Positions 5,544 to 63,805 of a DNA stretch of 64,000 nt are shown here, one piece after another. Every line of letters starts with the position of its first letter. Within the stretch, counting starts at the first letter, position 1. Source of the stretch: Candidatus Altiarchaeota archaeon. GTDB taxonomy: Archaea; SpSt-1190. Location of the stretch: positions 7,664 through 71,663 of the forward strand of contig JAAOXU010000002.1 in NCBI GenBank assembly GCA_018220935.1, written 5' to 3'. Made by a program: the position numbers and the translations under genes. Below the pieces are notes generated by a model that saw nothing but the letters and a program-made list of their open reading frames with translations, searched no databases and had not been told where the DNA came from.

Positions 5544-5553
5544 AACCTTTCTT

Positions 5554-5679
5554 TAACTAGTTTATATGAGCTATGAAACGAGCTTTTTCCCGCCGAGCGG
5601 GATTTTCAAAAAAGCTCGACCAAAACATGACAGAAAAACAAGGTAAAACCGCTCTAACTAGTTTATATGAGCTATGAAA
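5554..5679. repeat. 76-bp hairpin-family insert (5579-5654) flanked by exact 25-bp direct repeats (5554-5578, 5655-5679)
   Basis: TAACTAGTTTATATGAGCTATGAAA occurs twice. The distal copy holds the stop and last 7 codons of ORF 5658-6974. The insert carries a nested palindrome: CGAGCTTTTT-CCCGCCGAGCGGG-ATTTTC-AAAAAAGCTCG (5579-5618). Confidence 0.8.
5562..5569 (-). promoter_or_regulatory. TATA-like box for cbf5 (inside direct-repeat copy 1)
   Basis: CATATAAA on the minus strand, about 20-28 nt upstream of the cbf5 start. Confidence 0.35.
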
Positions 5680-6974
5680 AGGTCTGGTGTCTCAATTACA
5701 TTATCACAATTTTTAACCCAAACCTCTGATTTTGGCAGTATGATGTGTTTTAGGCCTACATTTAGCTCATTACAGCTCTTTGGGGAGTAAAAAAACCACT
5801 CGGGTTCTGAGTATTCAAAAGTCGGACTTTTTGGGGTTGGGAGTCCCCTATATGCCAGATAATTTTGAGTAAAAAACATATCACTAGCCGCTTCAGGGGG
5901 GAATAATGTAGTAGTGTAGTTGCCGTCTAATTGGTCTAAATATTGGAAATTTTCACTAATTGTCCCAACCCAGGGCATGGGAACTATTAGTAGTATTGAC
6001 GTTATGAGTGTTAGTTGTTTCCAAACTTTTTGACTCCTTCGTAAAAGTAGATACGAGAATGGTGGGACTAATGTTGTGATTATTATTTGATTCCACCCTG
6101 GTATATTCAAATTAAAAGGTAGACCAAAAATATATGCCATTGGAAAAACGACCGCGATAAAAACAGAAGGGAGTGAATACAAACCTTCTTTTCCTAACAT
6201 AAAAATTGACATCAAAATTCCCATTGCAACTAATACAAGTGAAGTAAATATCCACCCAAAGCCTTGATTTAATAAAACTGCTTTTGCCATATCGTAGAGT
6301 ATTTCAGATCTTGGTGTAATCCACCCTAATTTTCCAAGTGTTGGTGGGATGTATAAAGCAATCCACAATAAGGTGAAACTACCCCAGTACCAAAAATGTT
6401 TAGCGATTTTTTTACTAATTGATTTAAAAAATAAAAGTGGACCATAAAATACCATTGTGGGTAGGTGACTTGTAGTTCCAATCATAAAGAGTGTGGTTGT
6501 AATTAACTTATTTTTTCCTTTGTCAATATAAAACAATAAAATTAGGAATGCAAGATGTGCCATAAATTCGAGTAGTCTTCCCGTAGTCATAAATGACTGG
6601 ATTGAGAGTGGAAATAAAATGGCAAGCAACATATACTTCTCATTACCTGGTGAAATTTTTTTAGTGACCCAATAACTTATGAGCAACATTAAAAAATAAC
6701 TTAAAAAATATGCAAACTTAGGGGGTAATACAAAAGCTAAAAATAAGAATGGGATTAATGCGGGCGGAATAAAAACACGAACGGGGAGATTTCCTTGTTC
6801 TGCATAACTTGTTATTCCTTCCCTTGCGACTGCTACAAATTTATTTATGTGAAATGAATGGTCGATATGAAAAAAGTGAGATGGAAAATTATCACCTAGT
6901 CTTGAAAAATCAAGAGACACCATAAGAAGTGCAAACAAAATATAGACTTCTTTCCACCTTTTTCGTATTAACAT
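5658..6974 (-). CDS. Polytopic membrane protein, family not recognised (GT-C-type glycosyltransferase is only a context guess)
   Basis: 438-aa ORF with ten or more hydrophobic helices and a ~90-aa C-terminal soluble domain. It abuts the GT2 gene with a 1-nt gap. Confidence 0.45.
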   Translation of the reverse strand: MLIRKRWKEVYILFALLMVSLDFSRLGDNFPSHFFHIDHSFHINKFVAVAREGITSYAEQGNLPVRVFIPPALIPFLFLAFVLPPKFAYFLSYFLMLLISYWVTKKISPGNEKYMLLAILFPLSIQSFMTTGRLLEFMAHLAFLILLFYIDKGKNKLITTTLFMIGTTSHLPTMVFYGPLLFFKSISKKIAKHFWYWGSFTLLWIALYIPPTLGKLGWITPRSEILYDMAKAVLLNQGFGWIFTSLVLVAMGILMSIFMLGKEGLYSLPSVFIAVVFPMAYIFGLPFNLNIPGWNQIIITTLVPPFSYLLLRRSQKVWKQLTLITSILLIVPMPWVGTISENFQYLDQLDGNYTTTLFPPEAASDMFFTQNYLAYRGLPTPKSPTFEYSEPEWFFYSPKSCNELNVGLKHIILPKSEVWVKNCDNVIETPDLFIAHIN

Positions 6975-25930: not shown

Positions 25931-26085
25931 TCCCGCGGGCCGGATTTGAACCGGCAACAAGACGGTTTCTGATCGAGGGCTACTTTTCTCACCCCGCTAA
26001 GCGAGGGATTATCCCGTATTTCGGGTCCGTATGAGCATGCTCATCGGCTACAGCCGCCTGCTCTACCAGGTTGAGCTACCGCGGG
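25931..26085 (-). tRNA. tRNA-Tyr(GUA): tRNA-Tyr(GUA) with an 81-nt intron at the canonical 37/38 position
   Basis: Manual cloverleaf: CCCGCGG-UA-GCUC-AACCUGGUA-GAGC-A-GGCGG-CUGUAG[intron]A-CCGUC-UUGUU-GCCGG-UUCAAAU-CCGGC-CCGCGGG-A. Exons are 26048-26085 and 25931-25966; the intron is 25967-26047. It has the C1:G72 pair expected for archaeal tRNA-Tyr, and the anticodon loop CUGUAGA matches archaeal tRNA-Tyr. No CCA is encoded. The loop CUG can pair with the intron CAG, leaving an AA|A bulge at the 3' junction. Confidence 0.8.
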
Positions 26086-26130
26086 TCCATCCCGCAACGC
26101 GGGATCCAATAAGACTGTTTACTTTTTAGT

Positions 26131-26841: not shown

Positions 26842-27693
26842 TTAAATTTTTTCTTGATACGTGAGTTGCCAAAAAACTGCCCCTAATATGAAACCAAACC
26901 AAAGAGTCGTAAATCGAATTAACATCGTAACTGAAGTTGCAATTTTTCTACTAATATTAAAGACGACTAAAGTGCCAACCATTCCAGCTTCGGCCGCTCC
27001 AAGCCCCCCTGGAAGCATTGTTATATTACCTAAAATTAGGCTTGCTGAGAATGCAAAAATACTTTCAACCATAGTAATACTACCTCCAAAATACAGTACT
27101 GCTAGATAAATTTGGATGGCTTCAACCAACCAGGATGCGATAGAAATAAGAGTTGTGTAACTTATTAGCTTCCAATCACGAATTTGTTCAATTTCTTCTT
27201 TAACAAAGTGAAGCTTATGTCTAAAGGCATAAATTGCGAGTATTGCGGCTAAAAAAACCACCCCAACTAACCAAATACTTTTTAAAAATTGATTAGCAAC
27301 AAAAAGTCCAGTTACTCCTGCAAGTAAGAGGTGGGCAATTATGTCAAATGCACGTTCACTAAGCGTCAAAAATACCGTCTTTTTCCTACTAAATTTATGT
27401 CTTTTATACATTAATTCTGCCTTTATGACTTCTCCTGCCTTGGCGGGGGTTATAATAAAAAGTAATCCTGCAACATAGGTCTTAAACGCTTCAACAAAGC
27501 TAATTTTCATATTATAGTGAGCTAGTAAAATTTGCCACCGGTGTGCTTTTATCATATATCCAAAAACCGTCATTAAACAAAAAACTGAGACGATTTTCCA
27601 GTCTGGGAGTATTAATCCATCTGAAAAAAACACCAGTGCACTGTATGATACTATTGCGAGAATCAAAATTGAAAAGGCTAGTTTCTTCACCAA
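26842..27693 (-). CDS. UPF0104 / lysyl-PG-synthase TM-region (flippase-like) family membrane protein
   Basis: ~8 TM helices. HRWQILL..FVEAFKTYVAGLLFIITPAKAGEVIKAEL is typical of the family. Confidence 0.55.
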   Translation of the reverse strand: MVKKLAFSILILAIVSYSALVFFSDGLILPDWKIVSVFCLMTVFGYMIKAHRWQILLAHYNMKISFVEAFKTYVAGLLFIITPAKAGEVIKAELMYKRHKFSRKKTVFLTLSERAFDIIAHLLLAGVTGLFVANQFLKSIWLVGVVFLAAILAIYAFRHKLHFVKEEIEQIRDWKLISYTTLISIASWLVEAIQIYLAVLYFGGSITMVESIFAFSASLILGNITMLPGGLGAAEAGMVGTLVVFNISRKIATSVTMLIRFTTLWFGFILGAVFWQLTYQEKI

Positions 27694-27714: not shown

Positions 27715-27820
27715 AAAAGCTTTCTCGCGTAGCGGGACTTTTTCCCCGCTTTGCGGGGTTTTCTCACTCTGTGCGATTTTTTCCGCTCTGTGGAATTTTA
27801 CGAAAAACAGCGACCAAAAG
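27715..27820. repeat. Hairpin-family element: four tandem units in a divergent intergenic region
   Basis: AAGCTTTCTC, then units at 27724-27736 (CTCGCGTAGCGGG), 27744-27758 (CCCCGCTTTGCGGGG), a degenerate TTTTCTCACTCTGTGCGA and 27781-27795 (TTCCGCTCTGTGGAA), then the tail CAGCGACCAAAAG (27808-27820). Confidence 0.75.
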
Positions 27821-27902: not shown

Positions 27903-28922
27903 ATGTCAGTTGGCCAAAAATCAAAGACGCTGTTGGTTCGTGGAATTCCTGCGCATTTAGATGACGTTTGGGGGGATGAAGAAATTCATCCAGGCTTAGC
28001 TGAAATATATGACTTACCGCGAGTTGAACTAGTTGAAGACATTATTCCAGACAACTTAGATGACATCCCTTTTGAATCTGAATTACAGGAATCTATTGAG
28101 AGTAATCCTGAGACATCATCTTCTTATGAACAACTTAAACATCTTTACGCTTCTCTTTCAGAACGGGCAGATATGATTTTGAATCTCTCTGAACTTCTAG
28201 AAACGCAACTTGACTTGTCTGATATGTACAAACGTTCTGATAAAAAATTAGTTGTTAAAGCTGCAAGGGACCTAACTGAAAAATATTTTGATTATTCGCG
28301 ACTAAAAGACGTACTTTCTTATGAACCTATTGAAAGTGGAGCTATAAGTTATCTTTCTTGGTTACATGAAGTAGAAAACCAACTTTGGGACGAAGGTTTC
28401 AAATCATGGGAAAACACAAAAACTCATGATTTTTTTTATAAGGAACGTAAAGGTGGACGTCTATCTACAGGGGCGAAAATTGCAGATTTGTCCTACGGTT
28501 CTACCTTAGCTTCTTCGTTAGGTACGTGCCTGGTGTGGGCCTTTCGTATAACCCCCCCTTCAGCTTCAACTCCAACGGCTATTGACTTGGGTGCTGCATT
28601 GACTTGGACTGCTTTTTCTGCTAGTTTGGCCGTGCCTTATGTTTTAAATTCAGTCATTCCACGTTTCAATAAATACCGACACAGCAAAAAGTCTGAAACG
28701 CTTGGGAATAAATTAAGTTATTACCTACTTGATTTTTACCAAAACACAAGTAAAACTTTCAAAGACATTCATTATGATTTTGTAGGTAAACTTGTTTTGG
28801 GAAAACAAACCGAATATACAAATGAAGACATATCTAAACTCAATGAACTCTCTAATTCTATAAGTGTTGAAGAAAATCTCAGAAAGGCTGCCACTTTTTA
28901 TCTTGAATCTCAAAAAAAGTAG
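27903..28922 (+). CDS. Hypothetical protein with two central TM helices
   Basis: The ORF track opens at 27849 (TTG). I prefer ATG 27903 (MSVGQKSK..) because TTTTATAATTT at 27860-27870 looks like its TATA box. No family recognised. Confidence 0.45.
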   Translation: MSVGQKSKTLLVRGIPAHLDDVWGDEEIHPGLAEIYDLPRVELVEDIIPDNLDDIPFESELQESIESNPETSSSYEQLKHLYASLSERADMILNLSELLETQLDLSDMYKRSDKKLVVKAARDLTEKYFDYSRLKDVLSYEPIESGAISYLSWLHEVENQLWDEGFKSWENTKTHDFFYKERKGGRLSTGAKIADLSYGSTLASSLGTCLVWAFRITPPSASTPTAIDLGAALTWTAFSASLAVPYVLNSVIPRFNKYRHSKKSETLGNKLSYYLLDFYQNTSKTFKDIHYDFVGKLVLGKQTEYTNEDISKLNELSNSISVEENLRKAATFYLESQKK

Positions 28923-28947: not shown

Positions 28948-28966
28948 CCCACGTTAGTAACGTGGG
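28948..28966. terminator. Perfect 9-bp inverted repeat between convergent genes
   Basis: CCCACGTTA-G-TAACGTGGG lies between the stop at 28920-28922 (+) and the stop at 29014-29016 (-). Terminator function is an inference. Confidence 0.3.
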
Positions 28967-29013
28967 TTCAAATTTCACTAGATTCATTCAAGCTTTTTTC
29001 CGCTCCGCAAGAC

Positions 29014-29862
29014 TCACAAATTATACACTCTTTCAATCTCTAGATATGCAGTTGCTGGTGGTAAAAGTCCAATTTCAGTTACAATTCCTTGTATTCGACT
29101 ATTTGGTACTATCTCAAATGCAGGATTTATTACTTCAACTGAATAATTCCAAATTTCCTTTGGATCGCGTTTTTCAATCTCAACACTTTGTGCCATCAAA
29201 GACCCCTTGTCAAATTTTAGTCCTAATCCACAAGCGTATAGAGGAACTTCTAGACTCTCAGCAACTAAGGCGAGTAATCCCGTTCCAATTTTGTTAGCAA
29301 TACTTCCATTAGCAAACAAAGCATCAATACCAACTAAACATAAATCAACATTCTCTTTTTTCATGGCAACATACATCCCAGAGTCAACATAAAATTTTAC
29401 AGGAATTTTTAATTTTTTGAGTTCTTTAGCAGTTTTTTGCCCTTGATACCTTGGTCGAGTTTCAGTTGCAACAACTGTTATATTTTTACCTTCTTTTTTT
29501 GCTCGCTCTAAAATCCTAATTACAGTCATACTATGACAAATTGTTTGTACCACCATACCGTCTTTTATTAGTCTGCTTCCAATCTCAACAATTTTTTCCA
29601 TGCCATTATGAATTGTGTCAATAAAGTCTTGTGCCTTAATACCTACTTCAGTTGGATCTTCAATCTCCTTTAGTAAATTTAACATATTAATCATTAAGGG
29701 TTCAGTTGGCCTAGTTGAGATTAAAAGATCAATACCACTTCTAATCTTTTTTATATTGTTTTTTTTGGAGTATTCTTTTACGGCCTTTAGTGACTCCATT
29801 GCCACATTAGTTGCCCCTTGAACTTCAAGAGACTTTATCCGCTCTGCAACGTCTTTTAACAC
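29014..29862 (-). CDS. eIF-2B alpha/beta/delta-family protein, probable ribose-1,5-bisphosphate isomerase
   Basis: Family features: ..VQGATNVAMESL.., TETRPRYQG, and C-terminal NPAFEIVP..IVTEIGLLPP. The R15P-isomerase assignment rests on RuBisCO lying 1.2 kb away. Confidence 0.7.
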   Translation of the reverse strand: MLKDVAERIKSLEVQGATNVAMESLKAVKEYSKKNNIKKIRSGIDLLISTRPTEPLMINMLNLLKEIEDPTEVGIKAQDFIDTIHNGMEKIVEIGSRLIKDGMVVQTICHSMTVIRILERAKKEGKNITVVATETRPRYQGQKTAKELKKLKIPVKFYVDSGMYVAMKKENVDLCLVGIDALFANGSIANKIGTGLLALVAESLEVPLYACGLGLKFDKGSLMAQSVEIEKRDPKEIWNYSVEVINPAFEIVPNSRIQGIVTEIGLLPPATAYLEIERVYNL

Positions 29863-37170: not shown

Positions 37171-38016
37171 CTATTTACTCTCCTCTTTTTTCTCTTCTAA
37201 TTCGACAGGTTTTTCTTCAGTAACTACCTCAACCTTGTCTTTTTCTGCCTTTTCTTCCACTTCGGTTTTAGTGGGGTCTTCTTTCTTTTCTTTAGCTTCA
37301 ACTGCCACCTCTTCCTTTACCTCTTTCACTTCAACTTTTTCCTTTTCTTCAGTTTCAGTTGTAGTCTTAGCTGGTTTTTCTTCAGCTTTACTTTCACTTG
37401 ACTTTTCTTTAGTCTCTTTAACTGGAGCTTTATCTTCAGTTGTAGTCTTAGCTGGTTTTTCAGCTTGCTTTTCAGTTTTATTATCAAATTGATTTTCAGG
37501 TGTCTTTTCCCCTTTTGCCTTTTCATTTGGAGGATTTCTTAAGGGGTGTTTGGGGTCGTTTATTGCTGACCTATCATTGTACTTGACTGTCTTTTCTTCC
37601 TCAACACTAACAATATGGCCAGGTATATCCATTACATTACCGTTTATGGTCACGTGTCCGTGTGTAATTAATTGTCTTGCTTGAACTGGAGTAAAAGCCA
37701 AACCCTTTCGTAAAACTATAGTTTGTAATCGTCTCTCAAGTATGCCTTCAACTCTTAGACTGAGTATATCGTCGAGTGTTGCTTCTTTTGTAAAAATACC
37801 TAATTTTGAAAGTTTGGAGAATAATTCTTCTCTTCCCGTCTCTTCAGTAAAAAGTCTTCTTGCCCTAGCTCTGAATTTTCGAACAACATCCTTTGCTTTC
37901 CAAAGTTCACGTTTATTCTTTAATCCAAATTCTTTTTTGAGCTTAGCTTCTTCTTCCAAACGGGACTTGTCCCATCGCTTAAACGGCCTTGTATACATTT
38001 TTCTCTGTCTTTTCAC
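37171..38016 (-). CDS. rps4: Ribosomal protein uS4 with a ~115-aa Lys/Glu/Thr-rich C-terminal extension
   Basis: The N-terminal ~165 aa are typical archaeal uS4 (S4 RNA-binding domain ..RRLQTIV..LA.T..QARQLI.HGH..). The tail contains repeats of EKPAKTTTE. Confidence 0.85.
   Translation of the reverse strand: MKRQRKMYTRPFKRWDKSRLEEEAKLKKEFGLKNKRELWKAKDVVRKFRARARRLFTEETGREELFSKLSKLGIFTKEATLDDILSLRVEGILERRLQTIVLRKGLAFTPVQARQLITHGHVTINGNVMDIPGHIVSVEEEKTVKYNDRSAINDPKHPLRNPPNEKAKGEKTPENQFDNKTEKQAEKPAKTTTEDKAPVKETKEKSSESKAEEKPAKTTTETEEKEKVEVKEVKEEVAVEAKEKKEDPTKTEVEEKAEKDKVEVVTEEKPVELEEKKEESK
37174..37540 (-). repeat. Low-complexity/tandem repeat region encoding the uS4 tail
   Basis: The exact 26-mer TCAGTTGTAGTCTTAGCTGGTTTTTC occurs at 37355-37380 and 37436-37461 (offset 81 nt = 27 codons). 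Confidence 0.8.
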
Positions 38017-38477
38017 TACTTACCACCTGTTGGCTTCATGCCTTTCTTTCTGTGAACTCCCAGAGCTTTACCACTTCGTCTACCTGTACTCTTGGTGCGT
38101 TGACCTCTTACACGGAGACCGAATGCGTGTCTCATACCTCTGTAGGCCTTTCGTTTCTTTAGATAATCAAGATCTTCCTTTTGTTTAATCATCAAATCTG
38201 AGGATATTAAATGTTCATCTTTACCAGTTCTAGGGTCAAATTTTCTATTTACGGCCCAAGTTGGTAAACCTTTAATCTCCATTAAGAAGTCTTCAAGTTT
38301 TGTGAGTTCGTCGTCTTCAAACATCCCAATTTGTTTATTTGGGTCTAATTTCATTAATTTAATTATGGAGTTTGACGTGACAAATCCAATTCCTTTAACC
38401 TTAGTCAAGGCTATTCTAACTGGTGTCTTTCCTTTCAATTCTGCCGCTGCCAAGCGGACTATGTGTCTAAACTCCAC
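38016..38477 (-). CDS. rps13: Ribosomal protein uS13
   Basis: ..IVRLAAAELKGKTPVRIALTKVKGIG..; GTG start. Confidence 0.9.
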   Translation of the reverse strand: MEFRHIVRLAAAELKGKTPVRIALTKVKGIGFVTSNSIIKLMKLDPNKQIGMFEDDELTKLEDFLMEIKGLPTWAVNRKFDPRTGKDEHLISSDLMIKQKEDLDYLKKRKAYRGMRHAFGLRVRGQRTKSTGRRSGKALGVHRKKGMKPTGGK

Positions 38478-38497
38478 ATCTCACACCAATTTCACCG

Positions 38498-38505
38498 AAT
38501 ATAAG
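38498..38505 (-). promoter_or_regulatory. TATA-like box for the S13-S4-S11-RpoD operon
   Basis: CTTATATT on the minus strand, 21-28 nt upstream of the GTG at 38477. Confidence 0.4.
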
Positions 38506-38513
38506 TATTACGG

Positions 38514-39110
38514 TTACCTCCTTGGTTGGAAGACAAATAAGAAATACTTCTCATCTCCTTCAAGTTCTGCGAGTATTCTCTCCTTTATGCCCTTCTTTGG
38601 ATCTGTAATTAGAGGTAATCGCTTTTTTATGTCTGCTAAACTAGTAAACGGCTTTCTTCGGTTCTCAATAATATCCCACATATGTTTTTTCCCAATACCT
38701 GGTATTAATTCAAGGCTGTGCATCCTTGTAGTTATGGGGGATGCTTTATTGAAAAAGTTAGTAAAGTCAGCTTCGCTCTCTATTATGATTTTTTCAATAG
38801 CCTCTTCCAATTCAGATCTGGCTGCTGAACTCAAATCACCACTATTAATTCTAACCCATGCAGGGATAGTGGTTTTATCACCCAGATCAACTTCATCTCC
38901 CAATTTTAGGGCTTTTTCTGGGGATGCAACTGCAACCATCAGCATAAGCCTATCTTTTGACAACATAAATGCTAAAGGTGTGTTAAGATAACCTCCTCTA
39001 ACTATACGCATACCACGTTTTCTAAGCTGTGAGTCCACTTCTTGCGTTAATGTAAATGGGGCTCCACTTGGTAGTATATCTAATACAACTGCTTTTTCCA
39101 TTTTTTTCAC
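38514..39110 (-). CDS. DUF655 / COG1491 predicted nucleic-acid-binding protein
   Basis: OB-like N-terminal part (AVVLDILPSG..) and a helix-hairpin-helix (LELIPGIGKKHMWDIIENR). It shows the conserved archaeal synteny L21e-RpoF-DUF655. Confidence 0.7.
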   Translation of the reverse strand: MKKMEKAVVLDILPSGAPFTLTQEVDSQLRKRGMRIVRGGYLNTPLAFMLSKDRLMLMVAVASPEKALKLGDEVDLGDKTTIPAWVRINSGDLSSAARSELEEAIEKIIIESEADFTNFFNKASPITTRMHSLELIPGIGKKHMWDIIENRRKPFTSLADIKKRLPLITDPKKGIKERILAELEGDEKYFLFVFQPRR

Positions 39111-43687: not shown

Positions 43688-43709
43688 CTTTCTTTACTTA
43701 TTTTCTTTA

Positions 43710-43766
43710 GTGATGACAGAATCCAATACTGACCCCACCGGGTGTGACGAATGATGGGCTGTCTGA
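43710..43766 (+). ncRNA. Candidate box C/D sRNA (2'-O-methylation guide)
   Basis: Located in a 147-nt intergenic gap. Layout: C box GUGAUGA (43710-16), 12-nt guide CAGAAUCCAAUA, D' CUGA (43729-32), 12-nt spacer, C' UGACGA (43745-50, one mismatch), 12-nt guide AUGAUGGGCUGU, D CUGA (43763-66). The 12-nt box spacing is the archaeal hallmark. The terminal stem is weak. Confidence 0.55.
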
Positions 43767-43805
43767 CCAACTTGAACCGAAACAAAATCCGAACTGATTT
43801 AATAC

Positions 43806-44225: not shown

Positions 44226-44299
44226 GCGTCTGTCGTTCAGTTTGGCTAGGACTCTAGCTTCCCAAGCTAGTAACGCGGGTTCAAATCCCGCCAGGCGCA
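44226..44299 (+). tRNA. tRNA-Gly(CCC): tRNA-Gly(CCC)
   Basis: Manual cloverleaf: GCGUCUG-UC-GUUC-AGUUUGGCUA-GGAC-U-CUAGC-UUCCCAA-GCUAG-UAAC-GCGGG-UUCAAAU-CCCGC-CAGGCGC-A. It is 74 nt, with one G-U pair in the acceptor stem, no intron and no CCA. Confidence 0.85.
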
Positions 44300-44398
44300 T
44301 ACAAGCTTTTCTCACTCGCTTCGCTTGCTCCAAAACCTTGATCAAAAGGAGGTATCGGAACCTTGGTTCTGATTGGGTATCAAATCCCGCCAGGCGCA
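44300..44398 (+). repeat. 80-nt hairpin-family insert (44300-44379) followed by an exact duplicate of the tRNA-Gly 3' end (44380-44398)
   Basis: TCAAATCCCGCCAGGCGCA occurs at 44281-44299 and 44380-44398. The insert starts AAGCTTTTCTCACTC, contains GCTCCAAAAC, and has a 9-bp hairpin ATCGGAACC-TT-GGTTCTGAT. Confidence 0.8.
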
Positions 44399-44428
44399 CA
44401 TACTGTCTCTAGTTTGACGTGACAAAGG

Positions 44429-44438
44429 TTTATAATTA
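44429..44438 (+). promoter_or_regulatory. TATA-like box for the ChaC-like gene
   Basis: TTTATAATTA is centred ~26 nt upstream of ATG 44459. Confidence 0.4.
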
Positions 44439-44458
44439 GATCTTGACCTGATGAGCCT

Positions 44459-44995
44459 ATGGCAACAATATTAGGATACGGATCCTTGATGGATAAAAGT
44501 CAATTTGAGGCTTGGAAAAACCCGGTTCCTGTAACTGTCCACAATGTTAAGAGATCTTTTGCTAAAGACGCTTCAAGAGGTGCGTGGATGAATCATTCTA
44601 GTTATGTTTCTCCTATCTACACGGGTGTTCTTAGTGCTGAACTTAAATCTGGTTATGATACGTCTGCGGTGGCCTATGATATGGAAGATGCGGAAGTTGA
44701 AAAGTTAATGAATGATAGGGAGTTTGACTATGAACTCGTTGAGGTTGATTTTACGCCGTTATCTGACGAGTCTAAAATCCAAAAAGGGTTGATTATGATC
44801 CCAAATGTTCCAGATAAAATGAAAGACAATACACTTCCAATTTACAAATATATGGACGTTTGTTTGTCTGGTGCGGCTTCATGGGGTGAAGATTTTTTGA
44901 ATTTGTTTTTAGATACTACATACCTTGCTAACGGCAAAATAACGCTTAGAGATTATCTTGCGGTTGATTCGACCTACCACACTTCAAGTTACTAG
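44459..44995 (+). CDS. Gamma-glutamylcyclotransferase-like protein (ChaC/AIG2 fold), tentative
   Basis: The N-terminal ILGYGSLMDKSQFE, ..V.RSFA..SRG.., ..REFDYELVEV.. pattern resembles ChaC-like proteins. Confidence 0.4.
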   Translation: MATILGYGSLMDKSQFEAWKNPVPVTVHNVKRSFAKDASRGAWMNHSSYVSPIYTGVLSAELKSGYDTSAVAYDMEDAEVEKLMNDREFDYELVEVDFTPLSDESKIQKGLIMIPNVPDKMKDNTLPIYKYMDVCLSGAASWGEDFLNLFLDTTYLANGKITLRDYLAVDSTYHTSSY

Positions 44996-45010
44996 GTCTA
45001 AATTCAAGAA

Positions 45011-45029
45011 AGCTTCCCAAGCTAGTAAC
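45011..45029 (+). repeat. Exact 19-nt copy of the tRNA-Gly anticodon arm/variable region
   Basis: AGCTTCCCAAGCTAGTAAC is identical to 44256-44274. It is not part of any cloverleaf here. Confidence 0.8.
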
Positions 45030-45068
45030 TAAAGGAAAAATCTCACCAGACTAACTTAAATATCTAAA

Positions 45069-63206: not shown

Positions 63207-63805
63207 AAAGACTTAATCTAAAAAGACGTGTTAAGGGAATCACTGACTACAAAAAGCGTTTGAATCTATTGAAGTCTGGTAAGACTAGACTCGTAGTTAG
63301 AAAGACTGCTAATAATATTGTAGCACAACTTATTGATTATGTACCTGAAGGCGACAAAGTAATTCTTACAGTTGACATGAAAAGTATTAGAGCAAATGGG
63401 TGGAGAGCAGGAGTAAATACGCCTGCTTCATACCTTATAGGATATGCGTTAGGGATTCGTGCAAAGGAGCATAAAATTAGTAATGCAATTCTAGATACTG
63501 GACGACATGCAAAATCAAGCAAGATTTTTGCTGTTGTTAAAGGTGCAATTGATGCTGGACTAAAAGTCCCAATGGGAGAGGGTGCGGCACCAAGTGAAGC
63601 TAGAATTTCTGGTTCACATATTACTGCGTACCAAAAAGATGCTAAAGGTCATCAATTTGCAAAATACAAATCAGAAAAAATAGATATTGCTAAAGACTTT
63701 GATAAGGTCTTAGCTAAGATGAATCCCGCAAGCGGGAAAACTCCTGTAAAATCCCGCACAGCGGGAAAACAGGAAAACCCCGCAAGCGGGGAAAAAGGTG
63801 TATAA
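63203..63805 (+). CDS. rpl18: Ribosomal protein uL18 with a 28-aa C-terminal tail encoded by hairpin units
   Basis: ..RLVVRKTANNIVAQLI.. ..AILDTGRH.. The tail is MNPASGKTPVKSRTAGKQENPASGEKGV. Confidence 0.9.
   Translation: MKRLNLKRRVKGITDYKKRLNLLKSGKTRLVVRKTANNIVAQLIDYVPEGDKVILTVDMKSIRANGWRAGVNTPASYLIGYALGIRAKEHKISNAILDTGRHAKSSKIFAVVKGAIDAGLKVPMGEGAAPSEARISGSHITAYQKDAKGHQFAKYKSEKIDIAKDFDKVLAKMNPASGKTPVKSRTAGKQENPASGEKGV
63723..63796. repeat. Three hairpin-family units inside the rpl18 3' end
   Basis: CCCGCAAGCGGG (63725-36), CCCGCACAGCGGG (63753-65) and CCCCGCAAGCGGGG (63778-91), each flanked by A-runs (T-runs on the minus strand). Confidence 0.8.

Follow-up and report, generated by a model that had tools for sequence, protein, structure and literature searches.

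Why should a compact, AT-rich archaeal genome carry short GC-rich hairpins flanked by runs of T at scattered and dissimilar positions: are they signals on which the host depends, or DNA that has moved in? The question is raised by a four-unit array between a flippase-like gene and an orphan gene, in a window (the whole stretch of DNA analyzed) of 64 kb from one 76-kb contig, with a G+C content of ~35%, a very compact gene map and two tRNA genes, tRNA-Gly(CCC) and, on the minus strand, a tRNA-Tyr that contains an intron. A preliminary description had argued for a miniature element, mobile or recombinogenic, and against a specific regulatory site, and this has held up: every comparable locus is an insertion without counterpart in relatives. 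The reading favored here, which we regard as moderately probable, is that the hairpins belong to young, lineage-specific, non-autonomous mobile DNA modules in an AT-rich archaeal genome.

Five related contigs were compared (L001, L002, L003, L124 and L125; 74 kb in all), together with two sediment read sets (X1 and X3) of ~3-5x depth, whose short contigs left most hairpin loci uncovered. In public data, the closest relatives came from MAGs labelled Altiarchaeota/DPANN and from a JGI sediment sample, which contributed three contigs. Amino-acid identity to the nearest comparable genomes is 71-80% for the flippase-like protein and Cbf5 and 67% for uL18, with nucleotide identity of ~85%; a contig search with uL18 returned one distant relative only. 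Expected counts came from dinucleotide shuffles for the hairpin pattern, and from shuffles also for the T-run-flanked and frame patterns. The alignment of the units (A1, 29 columns) was too poor in information for a covariance model, and pattern counts and shuffles were used.

The impression that the hairpins are conspicuous in this DNA is borne out by counting: the perfect form, CCCGC-N2-6-GCGGG, occurs six times in the window, with 0.02 expected. GC hairpins with T-rich flanks on both sides number 4-5 (0.35 expected), and GC-rich 5-bp hairpins of all types 34 in nested counts (5 expected), much of the excess being of the CCCGC type. The hairpin enrichment is robust. A shared frame had been described at three loci (a, c and e; Table 1), and it is found in full at a and c and only in a looser version at e. 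The pattern AGCTTT-N10-110-GACCAAAA occurs twice in the window (5581 and 27718, loci a and c only) against 0.12 expected, and GC-N0-2-GACCAAAA[CG] twice (only 5614 and 27810) against 0.10, figures that are indicative only, since the patterns were defined after the data had been seen.

Neither the CCCGC...GCGGG hairpin nor the frame occurs in the 74 kb of the five related contigs, where ~7 hairpins would be expected at the density of the window. The X1 reads hold an extra 44-nt copy of 5583-5626, with five differences and flanks foreign to the window, at a depth matching that of the window organism. Copy number is small, with five loci in the window and at least three more copies in the X1 and X3 reads; loop length and unit spacing vary within the family, and modules run from 45 to 140 nt. 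The absence from 74 kb and the extra copies in the reads indicate a multi-copy, modular family restricted to the present lineage and closely related ones. Some pairs of units c1 and c4 are G·U, which favors pairing as plus-strand RNA, but they are too few to count as evidence.

A scan of metagenomes for the unit pattern gave no family copies among the matches listed: bacterial terminators, CRISPR repeats and an unrelated motif came up instead. The conserved metagenome motif CCCGC...GCGGGATTTCGTTTCGTTCAAC was set aside as unrelated to the hairpin family. Several unrelated AT-rich metagenome contigs (L035, L064, L080, L043, L006 and L028) share TTTTTCCCGC-N3-GCGGGATTTC(A/G)TTTCGTTCAACATTTT, a conserved element of another organism group, possibly an sRNA or tracrRNA tail, which is likewise unrelated.

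Table 1. Hairpin loci of the window, with their inserted elements and duplications.
Feature	Position	Strand	Remarks
Locus a, target-duplication copy 1 (28 nt)	5551-5578		now cbf5 promoter; direct-repeat family D3
Locus a, inserted element a (73 nt)	5579-5651	+	frame module 5581-5626; absent from L124
Locus a, target-duplication copy 2	5652-5679		last seven codons and stop of membrane-protein gene 5658-6974 (minus strand)
tRNA-Tyr leader hairpin TCCCGC-AAC-GCGGGA (~18-21 nt)	26087-26106		between conserved tRNA-Tyr promoter and mature tRNA 5' end
Locus c, left AAGCTTT core	27717-27723		overlaps ancestral motif CTAAAAAGCT, promoter of flippase-like gene 26842-27693
Locus c, four-unit array	27724-27820	+	tandem hairpin + T-run units, then 3' frame GCGACCAAAAG (27810-27820)
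Locus c, array units	c1 27723-27737; c2 27744-27758; c3 27762-27776; c4 27781-27795		c2 perfect
Cargo gene	27903-28922	+	orphan protein, 339 aa
Right end of 1.27-kb insertion	28955-28996	+	tRNA-Gly-like fragment, then AAGCTTT (28990-28996)
Locus e, duplication copy 1	44281-44299	+	last 19 nt of tRNA-Gly(CCC), T-loop TCAAAT to discriminator base
Locus e, inserted element e (80 nt)	44300-44379	+	left half 44303-44347, right half 44344-44379
Locus e, duplication copy 2 of tRNA-Gly 3' end	44380-44398	+	from direct-repeat search
Locus f, in-frame uL18 insertion (66-75 nt, 3' end)	63722-63796	-	three hairpin units, T-run orientation minus strand
Perfect hairpins	5589, 26091, 27745, 63725, 63753, 63779		pattern scan of window

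Are the loci insertions, and into what? At locus a, L124 has the same gene order (eIF2-gamma, GT2, membrane protein, cbf5, Orc1-like) and a Cbf5 80% identical; there the membrane-protein gene overlaps cbf5, and one ATTCATAGTCAATATAAAC stands against the two 28-nt copies of the window (alignment A2). The two copies are identical at 27 of 28 positions, with a spacing of 101 nt, and the first holds the cbf5 TATA box, ~26 nt upstream of a leaderless TTG/GTG start (5543/5540, minus strand). Locus a is on this comparison the insertion of a 73-nt element that duplicated 28 nt of its target; 5559-5915, element included, recurs without change in an independent X1 contig. Within the element, the hairpin TCCCGC-CGA-GCGGGA (5588-5602) sits inside a GAGCTTTTT/AAAAAGCTC stem, with GCTCGACCAAAAC after it (fold of -21 kcal/mol, z -3.4). 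The tail, AAAAACAAGGTAAAACCG, is similar to the sequence with which the right half of locus e begins, and from this likeness (AAAAACAAGGTAAAACC in a, AAAAGGAGGTATCGGAACC in e) the two elements appear to be homologous along their length.

The focal array is part of something larger. In L125 the IF-2B-like and flippase-like genes adjoin across a 55-nt spacer containing CTAAAAAGCT, with no such cargo gene between them, versus 1.32 kb in the window. The empty site reads CTAAAAAGCT|TATAG in L125, and the X3 relative has CTAAAAGC|TTTTCCGC. The X3 junction contig, from a relative ~84% identical, runs ...CCCTACTCTAAAAGC|TTTTCCGCTCCGC... without the window's tRNA-like fragment to the left; because it reads across the junction, the ancestral spacer is intact in that relative, and from 28997 on the window too continues as ancestral spacer. 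The flank is identified as flippase upstream DNA by the shared CTAAAAGC motif and the L125 gene order; in a whole-window search the 30-nt flank had no significant similarity to the flippase upstream region. The stretch 27717-27820 is then the left end of a 1.27-kb insertion bounded by 7-nt copies of AAGCTTT, with a right-end fragment, TAGTAACGTGGGTTCAAAT, that is identical to tRNA-Gly at 17 of 18 positions and like its 3' half.

The four tandem units reported at locus c are retained, and they are absent from both L125 and the X3 relative. A degenerate copy d (28990-29017) is not: it consists of ancestral IF-2B/flippase spacer plus the duplicated AAGCTTT, and the X3 relative's empty site has the spacer. 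The AAGCTTT strings at c and d, formerly counted as two independent frames, are the duplicated junction core of one 1.27-kb insertion. This insertion delivered an orphan gene: among 1.84 billion representative proteins the cargo protein matched only itself, from residue 19 of the long ORF, and it has no Pfam or PHROG match. The array lies between two divergent promoters and upstream of both, one of them that of the cargo gene. An integron attC site or gene cassette was considered and rejected, since loci c and d contain no RYYYAAC...GTTRRRY core, the window contains no intI, and a TATA-like box of its own precedes the cargo gene at ~27860. A CRISPR array or solo repeats was rejected as well, since successive units begin 19-27 nt apart and are separated by T/A runs alone.

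At tRNA-Tyr, two kinds of hairpin have to be told apart. The L125 gene has an identical promoter block, GCAAGTGTTTTAAAC, and identical exons, and is short of 21 nt, GATCCCGCGTTGCGGGATGGA, which in the window immediately precede the mature 5' end (alignment A4, otherwise 83% identical); the contig of an X1 relative likewise skips the leader hairpin, which is thus an insertion. The 81-nt intron (25967-26047, minus strand) has a counterpart in L125 (3861-3940) with the same architecture: a 14-nt palindrome ATGAGCRTGCTCAT, two hairpins and a tail GAAAAGTAGCC. The hairpins differ by compensatory changes (ACCCG...CGGGA versus ATCCC...GGGGT, and TCCCA...TGGGA in X1). Two intron units (25992-26007 and 26013-26025) had been included in the family, and are ruled out on the strength of this conservation: with the TTTTCTCAC string at 25984, they are ancestral intron structure, the TTTTCTCAC-like tail and the hairpins being conserved in relatives. 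It may be that the intron itself is functional.

The fourth comparison concerns ribosomal protein uL18, which has 200 aa here, 175-179 aa in eight of its ten nearest homologues, and 159 and 161 aa in the other two, so that it is 21-25 aa longer than its full-length relatives. The junction is uninterrupted in L001, L002 and L003, where the stop of uL18 adjoins the start of uS5 or overlaps with it. The three-hairpin stretch in the uL18 gene is an in-frame insertion, encoding NPASGKTPVKSRTAGKQENPAS(GEK). Its units fold as one long palindrome (-38/-43 kcal/mol, z -6.6/-8.2), and they lie in coding sequence with their A-runs in the mRNA, the non-terminating orientation.

Other features of the window were noted in passing. 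The uS4 gene (37171-38016, minus strand) codes for a protein of 281 aa whose S4 domain spans residues 95-141, and the 3' part of the gene consists of imperfect 34-nt direct repeats (37235-37600): a core protein has been extended, not by the hairpin type. Beside it, an apparent 285-nt gap (38017-38301) looks like a gene-calling issue rather than a real spacer, as its minus strand probably codes further ribosomal or RNA polymerase operon genes; the adjoining plus-strand ORF (38302-38991, 229 aa) is without a Pfam match. A C/D box sRNA candidate occupies 43709-43768 on the plus strand, in a 147-nt spacer, and has the textbook archaeal C/D layout (TGATGA, 12 nt, CTGA, loop, TGACGA, 12 nt, CTGA), yet no Rfam call.

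Orthologous loci could thus be compared at a, the tRNA-Tyr leader, c and f, and the insertion is missing from the relatives at all four, which shows that the insertions postdate the split from the nearest sequenced relatives. The earlier list of family members is amended accordingly: 5589, 26091, the c array, e and f stay, while the two intron units and copy d are removed.

These absences bear on another possibility, that the hairpins are sites selected by the host: intrinsic-type terminators, hairpins for RNA stability or processing, or operators (TCCCGC-N3-GCGGGA) for a dimeric protein. A 6-3-6 dyad is plausible as an operator, with loci a, b3 and c promoter-proximal, and a hairpin with a T-run resembles a terminator, the one after tRNA-Gly being correctly placed. 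Nothing of the kind is present at the orthologous positions in any of the relatives examined, however; three copies stand in uL18 coding sequence in the non-terminating orientation, loop length and spacing are variable, and the focal array is upstream of two divergent promoters, with nothing to terminate. Selection by the host is therefore a very improbable origin for the family. A general terminator role fits only locus e, after tRNA-Gly, and was rejected, c being between divergent promoters, f within a gene and a antisense; the contexts speak equally against a general operator role. Units in the T-run orientation, such as those after tRNA-Gly and upstream of the cargo promoter, probably act as a terminator or insulator.

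Structural readings were also tried. Small RNAs (an H/ACA RNA by cbf5, a C/D box RNA, or a tRNA-like minihelix suggested by a GACCA ending) were rejected for want of boxes and of Rfam support, and the loci are also absent from relatives. Among Rfam 15 families only the two tRNAs reach threshold in the window, and at a, c and e even the strongest of the weaker hits, with E values of 0.15 or more, stay far below the gathering score. Reading TTCCGCTCTGTGGAA as a replication-origin ORB was likewise dropped, because the sequence is one lone unit within an insertion and Orc1 context is missing at that site.

Locus e is read without a relative's tRNA-Gly locus, on the basis of its duplication and of copies in X3. 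The 19-nt repeat of the tRNA-Gly 3' end is perfect (19/19), with a spacing of 99 nt. The left half of the element, AAGCTTTTCTCAC...CTCCAAAACCTTGATCAAAA, carries the looser version of the frame (44304-44347), and the right half holds a GGAACC-TT-GGTTC hairpin. An X3 copy is collinear with the left half, without the right: it has the canonical GCTTGACCAAAA, reads CTCCAAAAGCTTGACCAAAA, and then diverges. The right half (44344-44378) sits in X3 at a different tRNA, ...GGGGGTTCAAATCCCCCTGACCCCA, whose own 19-nt TCAAATCCCCCTGACCCCA is repeated after it. The suggestion of mobility gains from this, there being two loci in the window with long, near-perfect target duplications, and copies in other contexts outside it.

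After the next gene, which is ChaC-like (44459-44995), comes a decayed tRNA-Gly 3' copy (39 nt, 45011-49), and over 44226-45049 three nested copies of the tRNA-Gly 3' part bracket the 80-nt insert and the ChaC-like gene. The arrangement looks like serial integration and gene capture at tRNA-Gly.

Such an arrangement raises the possibility that the loci are scars of integrase-mediated integration, the modules being terminators and arms next to the att sites of one or more integrative plasmids or viruses, with tRNA-Gly as target and AAGCTTT as secondary site. Elements a and e would then be interior-deleted remnants, and the hairpins would not themselves be mobile. The three nested copies (44281-44299, 44380-44398 and the decayed one) fit such a history; so does the end of the cargo element, where a tRNA-Gly-like fragment is joined to AAGCTTT much as tRNA-Gly, TAC and AAGCTTT follow one another at 44299-44309. 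The overlap region of a tyrosine recombinase would give a shared core of 7 nt, as seen here, and the 19-nt repeat spans T-loop to discriminator, which we take to be a classic att sub-location. Against this, the 28-nt duplication at a is at a non-tRNA site, and its sequence is not one that an element could plausibly have carried beforehand; the right-hand module in X3 stands at another tRNA and duplicates the 19 nt of that tRNA, which is expected of a target duplication more than of a carried attP; the uL18 and tRNA-Tyr leader insertions have no att-like context; and no integrase was found in the window. Integration scars are on balance a rather unlikely explanation of the whole set.

The duplications differ in length: 28 nt at a, 19 nt at e and 7 nt (AAGCTTT) for the cargo element. 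One enzyme making cuts with a fixed stagger would not give these lengths, and it may be asked whether an enzyme is needed at all. Hairpins might stall replication, with the nascent strand switching to another copy and returning upstream, so that a module is copied and a variable stretch of target duplicated, tandem units arising by slippage. Variable duplication lengths (7-28 nt) would be natural on such a model, as would tandem amplification (c3 and c4 share the loop CTCTGTG) and the tRNA-Tyr leader hairpin, whose first nucleotides repeat the GGA-CCCGCG of the neighboring tRNA 5' end; the window also yielded no mobilizing enzyme. The junctions at a and e are clean, however, module boundaries recur at unrelated sites, and the T-loop insertion point is identical at two different tRNAs, which suggests site recognition. 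Templated insertion of this kind is on these grounds improbable.

For the mobile modules preferred here, insertion, target duplication, modular composition, tandem unit variation and lineage restriction are all observed, and the following scheme could account for them. The basic module is ~45 nt long: AGCTTTT, one or more units, each a T-run, (T)CCCGC-N2-3-GCGGG(A) and a further T-run, and then AAAAGC(TC)GAYCAAAA(C/G). It can be joined by a second module on the right, by a cargo gene, or by hairpin units (19-27 nt) multiplied in tandem. A trans-acting enzyme encoded outside the window would make staggered cuts, or recombine at short cores, and paste the module in, duplicating the target; the number of units could then shift by slippage or unequal exchange. 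Copies would persist only where harmless, and in coding sequence only in frame. Inside transcription units the A-run strand would be the sense strand, as oligo-T stops archaeal RNA polymerase, which is sensitive to it; element a is antisense to both adjoining genes, and in the copies within transcription units at a and f the T-runs are antisense, the orientation rule counting only three or four cases.

What might the enzyme be? Besides the uneven duplication lengths and the small copy number, it weighs against mobile modules that no transposase, integrase, reverse transcriptase or Cas1 is found among the ~45 ORFs of the window, and that, with the nearest genomes so distant (~85% nucleotide identity), no presence/absence polymorphism was seen within a population. 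Duplications of 28 and 19 nt speak for cuts with a wide stagger or for template switching. The 7-nt core (AAGCTTT) and the arrangement of tRNA fragments favor an integrative element of the tyrosine-recombinase type, and the short copies might then be its scars or miniature derivatives. One lead is a DDE_Tnp_1 (IS4-family) transposase encoded at 12790-13731 of L002, because some IS4-family members make long target duplications.

A bolder possibility, which we consider unlikely, is a new class of archaeal non-autonomous element moved by a structure-specific enzyme with very long staggers (19-28 nt). Its cuts would include a precise one in tRNA genes, from T-loop to discriminator. If this were true, the enzyme would keep placing short hairpin-rich inserts inside and beside tRNA genes, and could give rise to non-canonical tRNA introns, to fragments of tRNA genes and to core-protein peptide extensions in DPANN archaea. 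The long clean duplications (19 and 28 nt) point outside the usual archaeal IS/MITE chemistry; if so, the enzyme is worth finding.

DPANN genomes are usually seen as streamlined by loss; here at least five recent small insertions lie within 64 kb. They touch core machinery: a uL18 tail of ~25 residues, a structured tRNA leader, a duplicated promoter, and an orphan gene between conserved genes. Such genomes thereby have a concrete source, and one that can be dated, of new orphan genes, lengthened proteins and rearranged tRNA genes, and hairpin insertions also explain assembly breaks at these sites.

How do the modules compare with known systems? To our knowledge, no such hairpin element family has been described in DPANN archaea, and a full-text literature search on Undinarchaeota found nothing on repeats. 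Archaeal integrative elements in tRNA genes, with gene capture and with SSV-type and pNOB8-type integrases, have reportedly been described by She, Garrett and colleagues. The likeness lies in partial tRNA 3' ends repeated downstream of an intact tRNA gene, captured genes bracketed by fragments, and a short shared core at the junctions. Unlike those elements, the inserts at a and e are only 73-80 nt and have no integrase halves, and a is a non-tRNA site with a 28-nt duplication. Direct repeats of the tRNA 3' part are present at tRNA-Gly, and the DNA that they bound consists of 80 nt and the ChaC-like gene, with no integrase. The IS1634 group of the IS4 family has long, variable direct repeats, and shares with the modules target duplications far above the usual 2-12 bp; unlike that group, the elements here have no clear terminal inverted repeats matching any IS.

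As in MITEs, the modules are short, non-coding and multi-copy, with target-site duplications and an empty site in relatives (28 nt at a, by comparison with L124; 19 nt at e; 7 nt for the cargo element), lengths that are mutually inconsistent. Terminal inverted repeats of a parent IS are not found, the AGCTTTTT/AAAAAGCT inverted repeat of locus a being internal, and the window holds no transposase. REP/BIME elements and REPINs are mobilized by RAYT (Y1) transposases (PMC3733652). They too are hairpins of 20-40 nt, often tandem or inverted, extragenic, and sometimes terminators or mRNA stabilizers; REPs have a GTAG/CGTC terminal tag and no target duplication, whereas here there are duplications and no tag in the unit alignment (A1), and no RAYT/TnpA-like (Y1) gene is present in the window. 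Judged by terminal inverted repeats, parent transposase and sequence tags, the modules are formally neither MITEs nor REPs.

By behavior, the closest analogues appear to be Rickettsia palindromic elements and the GC clusters of fungal mitochondria. The former are intragenic MITEs that insert in frame into genes (PMC10969869): like them, the modules are palindromic and non-autonomous, occur in a reduced genome and can enter essential genes in frame, adding a peptide (uL18 here). The Rickettsia elements are ~100-150 bp, bacterial and mostly intragenic, whereas only one of about five loci is intragenic here and the units are 19-27 nt. Mitochondrial GC clusters (in yeast, for example, GC42) are GC-rich palindromes in AT-rich DNA, with target duplications, merger and shuffling, and an enzyme that is unknown (PMC4478555). 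In both cases, GC-rich palindromes of 20-80 nt are scattered in a compact AT-rich genome, with presence varying between relatives, putative target duplications, modules merging into composites, some copies in coding sequence and no dedicated enzyme known. The mitochondrial clusters are organellar, with duplications of 2-3 nt (AG/TAG), as against 7-28 nt on an archaeal chromosome, and unlike them the units here have T-run flanks and the AGCTTT...GAYCAAAA frame; no sequence relationship is implied. The modules are, on the favored reading, mobile junk-like DNA of a broadly known kind, and what is unusual about them is the length of their target duplications.
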